A stretch of 64,000 nucleotides of DNA. Source: Escherichia coli. GTDB lineage: Bacteria; Pseudomonadota; Gammaproteobacteria; Enterobacterales; Enterobacteriaceae. Positions 38,342-38,784 of this stretch are shown here, piece after piece (position 1 is the first letter of the stretch; every line of letters begins with the position of its first letter). The translations under genes and the position numbers were made by a program. The notes under the pieces were generated by a model that was given only the letters and a program-made list of their open reading frames with translations, made no database searches and was not told where the DNA came from. The DNA is taken from NCBI RefSeq assembly GCF_003334385.1, contig NZ_QOWN01000013.1. The stretch is one strand, 5' to 3'.

Positions 38342-38784
38342 TCAGAACGACCAGTTCACACCAGCCACCGCGTTCCACGGGGATTCCACACCGGCACCAT
38401 GGCTATACCCCACCCCGAGATGTCCGCTAAACGTACTGCTGAATGAGGCTTTAATAGCTGCCTGGTATATTCCACGTCTGCCCGACAAATCATTGACGAA
38501 ATTACCGTCATTATTCACCTTCACCCGGTTATCATCGACAAATTCTTTGCGCACAGCCGCCTTCAGCCAGGGTTCATTTCCATACCGTTCCCCAGGCGCA
38601 TGTTGTAACTCAGCGTTGCACCCAGTTCACGATATATACTGCGGGTATCGACTGATTTCGATTCCATGCCATTGGATAAATGATAGTAGCGTCTAAGTGA
38701 CCTAAGCTCTGCTGCAACATCAGCCCGCAGGCACCAGACCAGGGGATTCATCCTGAAGAGACAGCGCAGGTGTATTGTGTTCAC
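38342..38784 (-). pseudogene. ycgI: Autotransporter remnant (C-terminal beta-barrel fragments only)
   Basis: Two short minus-strand ORFs; the distal one ends ...AGVNWSF*, typical of an autotransporter C-terminus; no passenger domain present. Confidence 0.55.

Follow-up and report, generated by a model that had tools for sequence, protein, structure and literature searches.

The ycgI pseudogene beside minE in Escherichia coli K-12 as the 3' stump of a YpjA/EhaD-like autotransporter gene

Introduction

YpjA/EhaD (K-12 b2647) is a self-associating, biofilm-promoting adhesin of the AIDA-I type, classed with the biofilm-forming AIDA-I/Ag43-like autotransporters (PMC9289746). The 3' end of its gene is 95.4% identical in DNA sequence to a short segment, ycgI, that lies beside minE. 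ycgI has been cited as a K-12 pseudogene (PMC6206680) and appears among the predicted outer-membrane proteins whose models have 'deformed or broken barrels' (PMC7383365). Its identity is therefore already known: it is an annotated pseudogene of K-12, with RefSeq bounds that correspond to 38342..38685 of the DNA analysed here.

We examined this locus in a 64,000-nucleotide stretch of E. coli DNA (the window), which from 37960 to 39300 is 100% identical to E. coli K-12 MG1655. We conclude that ycgI is almost certainly an inert remnant, the 3' end of a type Va (AIDA-I/YpjA-like) autotransporter adhesin gene once oriented convergently to minE.

Results

Anatomy of the ycgI stump

The RefSeq annotation orders the genes in this part of the window as minC, minD and minE on the plus strand, the pseudogene ycgI (minus), a 39-aa hypothetical protein (minus), ymgJ (minus), ymgI, ymgG and ymgD (plus), and the pseudogene ycgH (minus). 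Positions without a locus handle are those of the window; RefSeq coordinates were converted by setting position 4001 of locus L001 at window position 37960. The stump has these features:

38342..38685, minus strand, 344 bp: ycgI proper, the last 114 codons and the stop of an AIDA-I-type autotransporter gene, encoding the C-terminal ~40% of the beta-barrel translocator
38575..38577, minus strand: 1-bp deletion at 38576, one A lost from a plus-strand AA pair (ATT to AT on the coding strand), located by pairwise alignment to the intact allele described below
38305..38334, minus strand: terminator-like hairpin just past the stop codon of the stump, CTGCGC-TTCG-GCGCAG and then TTTTCGTTT (minus strand), read from the sequence

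RefSeq/PGAP labels 38342..38685 'autotransporter outer membrane beta-barrel domain-containing protein; frameshifted; incomplete; missing N-terminus'. At the family level, the stump matches TIGR01414, AIDA-I and Ag43. When the frameshift is corrected, its 114 residues match positions 319-432 of the 432 positions of TIGR01414 (E 5.5e-21), which is far beyond chance and indicates that the autotransporter homology is real.

An earlier note on this DNA had described 38342..38784 as ycgI, an autotransporter beta-barrel remnant lacking its passenger. The TIGR01414 match and the RefSeq annotation bear out that identification, as they do the homology to a barrel, except that only ~40% of the barrel is there and that the start codon, signal peptide and linker have gone along with the passenger. 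The note's figure of about 450 bp was too large, since only the 344 bp of 38342..38685 derive from the autotransporter gene and 38686..38784 is its upstream leader. The ORF end that it reported, ...AGVNWSF*, is present at 38342..38554; the single interval holds two ORFs with the 1-bp deletion between them. Its placement of the remnant downstream of minE was right: the stump is convergent with minE (37704..37970).

By translation, the lesion at 38576 turns ...GNGIEIEPWLKAA... into ...GNGMEMNPG* in K-12. The two minus-strand ORFs, 38342..38554 and 38563..38784 (73 codons), lie in different frames. The hairpin at 38305..38334 is conserved in E. coli and E. albertii and is presumed to be the terminator of the ancestral autotransporter gene; a consensus terminator scan did not pick it up.

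A functional type Va autotransporter has its own start and ribosome-binding site in an uninterrupted ORF, a Sec signal peptide with a passenger, and a complete 12-stranded barrel (PF03797/TIGR01414). The K-12 stump has none of these. The start codon and Shine-Dalgarno sequence are gone and the frame is shifted; codons 1-1024 are absent; and what remains begins at residue 1025, whereas PF03797 spans residues 877-1115 of the intact protein. The solved translocator of BrkA, 284 aa long, can be aligned to the C-terminal 283 residues of the intact protein, and on that scale the 114 residues of the stump make up ~40% of a translocator, or an estimated 5 of 12 strands. A 'deformed or broken' barrel model is what one would expect when only 40% of the barrel is there. 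A product with so few strands and lacking an export signal would be unable to form a translocator, and we infer that the stump has no protein function.

The intact allele and the deletion junction

In about 900 of the 5426 complete E. coli genomes, the match to the K-12 arrangement stops at window position 38685. Strain UTME-7 carries an intact gene at this locus (3417 bp, 1138 aa, L003 9383..12799), whose neighbours are identical to those in K-12: minE to one side, and the 39-aa ORF, ymgJ, ymgI and ymgG to the other. In RefSeq this allele is named YpjA/EhaD-like. The protein contains six AIDA repeats, a pertactin domain and an Autotransporter beta-domain (PF03797, residues 877-1115), and it matches TIGR01414 with an E value of 5.6e-92. 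Between the pertactin domain and the barrel, at residues ~760-830, lies a very long linker of Asn-Pro repeats (~35 NP units), whose length probably varies between strains. The 3' end of the UTME-7 gene (L003 9383..9727) is 95.9% identical in DNA sequence to 38342..38685. Together, the 95-96% DNA identity to ypjA and to the intact allele at the orthologous locus places the stump within the YpjA/EhaD-like AIDA-I subfamily by descent.

Blastn aligns K-12 to UTME-7 in two blocks, 37901..38685 with L003 8942..9727 and 38685..39400 with L003 12829..13544. K-12 thus lacks L003 9728..12828, which is 3101 bp. Two further features follow from this alignment:

38685..38686 (strand not given): junction left by the 3101-bp deletion, whose ends share 1 bp (A) of microhomology, from the blastn breakpoints and a three-way alignment
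38686..38784, minus strand, 99 bp: former 5' leader, a 99% match to L003 12829 onward, upstream of the intact ATG

The deletion took codons 1-1024, the start codon, the Shine-Dalgarno sequence and 29 bp upstream, and with them the signal peptide, the whole passenger, the linker and ~60% of the barrel. Because the intact ATG lies at L003 12799 and the deletion reaches 12828, 38686..38784 is leader and not autotransporter coding sequence. The leader reads in frame into the stump by chance, and it supplies the GTG 'start' at 38784 of the ORF 38563..38784.

One junction, followed as a 24-mer, was common to all seven deletion-type loci sampled, including that of ST131 (the loci are 94-100% identical to K-12). 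We rejected recurrent separate deletions, as the junction was identical in every sampled deletion-type locus. An 80-mer across the junction is contiguous in 4522 of the 5426 complete genomes (83%).

Lesions within the stump differ between lineages. K-12 has the frameshift at 38576; Rb-50, ST131 and A25 carry stops as well as another frameshift, close to the junction. B2-type strains likewise have frameshifts and stops other than the K-12 lesion. Three deletion-type alleles (L006, L007 and L010) have no frameshift and keep the 114-codon frame open, indicating that the K-12 frameshift came later than the large deletion. Both hallmarks of a pseudogene are thus found, disabling lesions and further lesions acquired independently by lineage. 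The common junction and the lineage-specific lesions point to one old deletion followed by neutral decay. A single illegitimate-recombination event with 1 bp of microhomology removed the 3101 bp and joined the former 5' leader to the 114 terminal codons; this one allele is now the majority state in E. coli, and the stump has since decayed independently in different lineages.

States of the locus across E. coli and its relatives

With a 5.4-kb probe for the full-length locus, at least 80% covered, 424 of the 5426 complete E. coli genomes (7.8%) scored as full-length, a count that takes in O55:H7, some O157:H7 and a few loci interrupted by insertion sequences. The earlier note had named a longer intact reading frame as the finding that would count against a remnant: K-12 has none, and the 1138-aa allele at the same locus accounts for those 424 genomes. 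Genomes with neither the full-length locus nor the deletion junction are in other states. In O157:H7 TW14588 (L002 9383..17886), the same gene has been cut to 753 bp by IS1203, with its 3' end kept beside minE, and DNA carrying ompT, an alpha/beta hydrolase gene and ISEc8 replaces ymgJ-ymgI-ymgGD. This truncation is an event independent of the K-12 deletion. An exact look-up of the MinE protein returned only loci with the E. coli-type gene order, mostly of the deletion type, and no other species.

Homology to the ypjA locus of K-12 runs from 38332, just past the stop, to 39039, and covers the leader, the 39-codon ORF and the ymgJ region. It amounts to 95% identity over 354 bp on the stump side of the junction and 89% over 355 bp on the leader side; within the latter, 38686..38784 is 90-97% identical to the region upstream of ypjA. 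The whole leader, 38686..39039, is duplicated upstream of ypjA (L004 7621..7976) at 89% identity, with blocks of 95-97.5% at 38726..38845 and 38965..39004. These blocks may represent a leader or promoter conserved within this adhesin family.

In three non-coli Escherichia lineages, L037, Escherichia sp. E1V33 (L123) and E. whittamii (L140), 37973..38981 is replaced by ~175 bp, while minE and ymgI-ymgG-ymgD are kept. The ~1-kb block that they lack consists of the spacer, the stump, the 39-codon ORF and ymgJ. E. albertii has a homologous gene at the same site as the E. coli gene, with a frame open for at least 915 codons, to the contig end.

These loci allow the full-length state to be read as derived: a cassette corresponding to 37973..38981 would have arrived at minE in the lineages of E. 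coli and E. albertii, with the cryptic clades ancestrally free of it. The ~175 bp found in its place in L037, L123 and L140 are consistent with this history, but the cassette occupies the same site in E. albertii. A branching of E. albertii outside E. coli and the cryptic clades would favor old presence and later loss. Moreover, homology to the cassette-free lineages resumes at 38982, and 57 bp of the DNA that they share with E. coli fall within the segment of homology to the ypjA locus, which also argues against late arrival. We regard a derived cassette as possible but doubtful. It would alter only the deeper history, as the K-12 stump must descend from a full-length gene either way.

Small ORFs beside the stump

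Three small ORFs are annotated between the stump and ymgG:

38720..38839, minus strand: 39-codon ORF (WP_001131446.1, hypothetical), part of the autotransporter leader, 65 bp before the intact ATG
38800..38985, minus strand: ymgJ (61 codons, GTG start, Pfam PF28592), wholly within the autotransporter leader/cassette
39086..39259, plus strand: ymgI (57 codons, Pfam PF28591), ending 1 nt before the TTG start of ymgG

The interval is AT-rich, as the earlier note had observed (GC 0.29-0.37 over 38800..39300), and its guess that ymgI- and ymgJ-like small genes lie there agrees with RefSeq, which annotates both. It had found no ORF of 60 aa or more; there is one, of 66 aa at 38800..39000, which includes the annotated 61-aa ymgJ.

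We compared these ORFs with the flanking genes for pN/pS, for variable sites at codon positions 1/2/3 and for lesions:

minE: pN/pS 0; variable sites 1/0/2; no lesions seen
ymgG: pN/pS 0; variable sites 0/0/7; no lesions seen
39-codon ORF: pN/pS 5.35; variable sites 6/4/2; start codon lost in L005 and L009
ymgJ: pN/pS 0.73; variable sites 1/8/5; frameshift in ST131, stops in the copy upstream of ypjA
ymgI: pN/pS 2.0; variable sites 1/6/1; premature stop in L037, 1-nt deletion in E. whittamii (L140)

Among the 8-9 alleles compared, a small sample of short ORFs, none of the three small ORFs showed purifying selection, and each was broken in some lineage. Identical ORFs have recorded Pfam matches for YmgJ (PF28592) and YmgI (PF28591); neither ORF is kept intact throughout the relatives.

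For the two ORFs on the minus strand, the surroundings suggest an origin. The 39-codon ORF also occurs upstream of ypjA. The ypjA-upstream counterpart of ymgJ is 88% identical to it, RefSeq too marks a frameshift in the ST131 ymgJ, and ymgJ is absent from the Escherichia lineages without the cassette. The 39-codon ORF is probably not a gene, and it and ymgJ appear to be ORFs that exist by chance in what survives of the leader of the lost autotransporter gene.

ymgI lies outside the cassette block. In the two lineages where it is broken, L037 (by a stop at codon 39) and E. whittamii, YmgG keeps 96-99% identity. The final ~50 nt of the ymgI ORF and the block 39158..39178 are nevertheless invariant in DNA. 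Within ymgI, TAAGATTATTCTCA at 39103..39116 resembles the consensus of an RcsB box. Control of the ymgGD 5' UTR by OmrA/B has been published, and ymgGD is induced by envelope stress. Together, the lesions in ymgI, the invariance of its 3' DNA, the control by OmrA/B and the envelope-stress induction suggest that ymgI is probably promoter and 5'-UTR DNA of ymgGD instead of a conserved protein gene. In the literature, ymgI and ymgJ figure as hypothetical genes, with no regulator or function given. A 16-fold change in ymgI signal in a microarray study could equally be a signal from the ymgGD 5' UTR.

A terminator-bearing element between minE and ycgI

The spacer between minE and ycgI contains an unannotated element of ~85 nt, at about 38186..38272 on the plus strand, that ends in a strong intrinsic terminator. 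A consensus scan placed the terminator stem at 38246..38263, followed by a T7 run, and the upstream terminator of minE at 37995..38027. The ~60-nt segment before the terminator is near-invariant across diverse E. coli, and the element is single-copy in 5316 of the 5426 complete genomes. E. albertii shares a 57-nt core at 100% identity, in a spacer that is otherwise very diverged. At 38214..38230 the copy number of a heptamer, TTCATT(A/G), varies; Rb-50 (L005) has two additional units, a 14-nt insertion.

A plus-strand ORF, 38171..38338, overlaps the element. We rejected it as coding, since it runs through the terminator and is interrupted by a 1-nt deletion in ST131 and by the 14-nt repeat expansion in L005. 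As these indels break the overlapping ORF, the element is non-coding. A scan of 36000..43000 against Rfam, with E values up to 1, returned no family, and the predicted fold of 38186..38274 was not distinctive (z = -1.7). The exact 29-mer of the terminator had no matches in representative-genome contigs, a result that we put down to the limits of the scan or of the representatives and do not count as evidence. When plasmids were searched with the intergenic element, every record returned was from Escherichia and marked as non-mobilizable, and several were the size of a chromosome, so that the search was uninformative. The supplements of a Term-seq paper contain no entry for minE, ycgI, ymgJ or ymgI.

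The element is a candidate sRNA or 3' end of minE read-through. In a tentative wider reading it would be an undescribed sRNA or a 3' RNA produced by read-through from minE and, separately, ymgJ, the 39-codon ORF and ymgI would be orphaned leader together with promoter/5'-UTR DNA of ymgGD, an envelope-stress operon, and not protein genes. We consider this composite unlikely.

Discussion

The best explanation of ycgI is a single deletion in a full-length adhesin gene, followed by decay of what was left. The lost function was presumably adhesion or aggregation, by analogy with YpjA, which is grouped with biofilm-forming adhesins of the AIDA-I/Ag43-like type. As an alternative to drift, selection for loss could explain the high frequency (83%) of the deletion allele.

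The remnant might instead have been kept for its DNA or RNA, either as a patch of homology through which ypjA or incoming DNA could rebuild a full-length adhesin, or as a spacer and terminator that insulates minCDE from transcription on the ymgJ side. Homology to the ypjA locus does flank the junction on both sides, and terminator-like hairpins stand on either side of the stump. UTME-7 has flanks that are 99-100% K-12-like and a 3' gene end that is only 95.9% identical to the K-12 stump, a contrast that suggests allele exchange by recombination. However, homology capable of recombination is a by-product of any partial deletion and not a sign of selection, and indels and stops accumulate within the stump. 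We consider such a role very unlikely, and prefer an inert remnant.

That the stump or its fusion to the leader (73 codons in K-12; 147 without the frameshift) is expressed and has taken on a new role as a small envelope protein or peptide is scarcely credible: an ORF with a GTG start at 38784 is present, the 114-codon frame is open in L006, L007 and L010, a gene caller predicts a 147-aa leader-stump product in L013, and a screen for division inhibitors enriched DNA extending from minCDE into the ycgI homologue, which in its authors' view may simply reflect linkage to minCDE, but the frame is broken differently in K-12, Rb-50, ST131 and A25, the native start codon and Shine-Dalgarno sequence are gone, the leader-derived N terminus is no autotransporter signal peptide, and ~5 of 12 strands cannot close a barrel.

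To the known identity of ycgI, our analysis adds the 3101-bp deletion with its microhomology and the secondary frameshift, and it reassigns part of the older 443-bp 'ycgI' to the leader. It also adds a population picture, in which the deletion junction is found in 83% of genomes and a full-length 1138-aa YpjA-like adhesin in ~8%, with independent IS-mediated truncations elsewhere. The locus is a small, clean example of the repeated loss of surface adhesins in E. coli. It also carries a caution, as small ORFs annotated beside a dead gene (here ymgJ, the 39-codon ORF and ymgI) may be remains of regulatory DNA and not genes.

A further decayed autotransporter gene, ycgH (40027..42648, minus strand), lies on the same strand as ycgI 1.3 kb away, in the same 5-kb neighborhood. 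RefSeq marks it 'frameshifted; internal stop' in K-12, where it is nearly full length and is split into ORFs of 344 and 506 codons. Unlike ycgI, it has decayed through point lesions and not through a large deletion, and it belongs to a different subfamily (Pfam AC_1 + Pertactin). At six E. coli loci (L012-L015, L018 and L019), ycgH is called as an ORF of 773 aa that has Pertactin, AC_1 and Autotransporter domains. The O157:H7 allele is the same gene as ycgI at the same locus, with its 3' end likewise kept by minE; it differs in having been cut by IS1203, to 753 bp. Related O55:H7 and some O157 strains retain the full-length locus, unlike TW14588.

Among structurally described translocators, the barrels of BrkA (3QQ2) and Vag8 (7AKV) can be aligned over their full length with the last 283-301 residues of the intact allele (E 1.5e-24 and 4.5e-26, respectively). 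The K-12 stump corresponds to only the last ~114 residues of such a translocator domain.

The intact minE-locus allele is a close paralogue of YpjA. It is 80% identical to that protein over 1024 aa and nearly identical from residue ~300 to the C terminus, whereas the N-terminal parts have diverged (47% identity). The two also differ in length (1526 aa for YpjA, 1138 aa for the minE-locus protein), in position (next to CP4-57 as opposed to between minE and ymgJ) and in the Asn-Pro linker, which is much longer in the UTME-7 allele than in K-12 YpjA. Unlike ypjA, the copy at the minE locus of K-12 is down to 114 codons.
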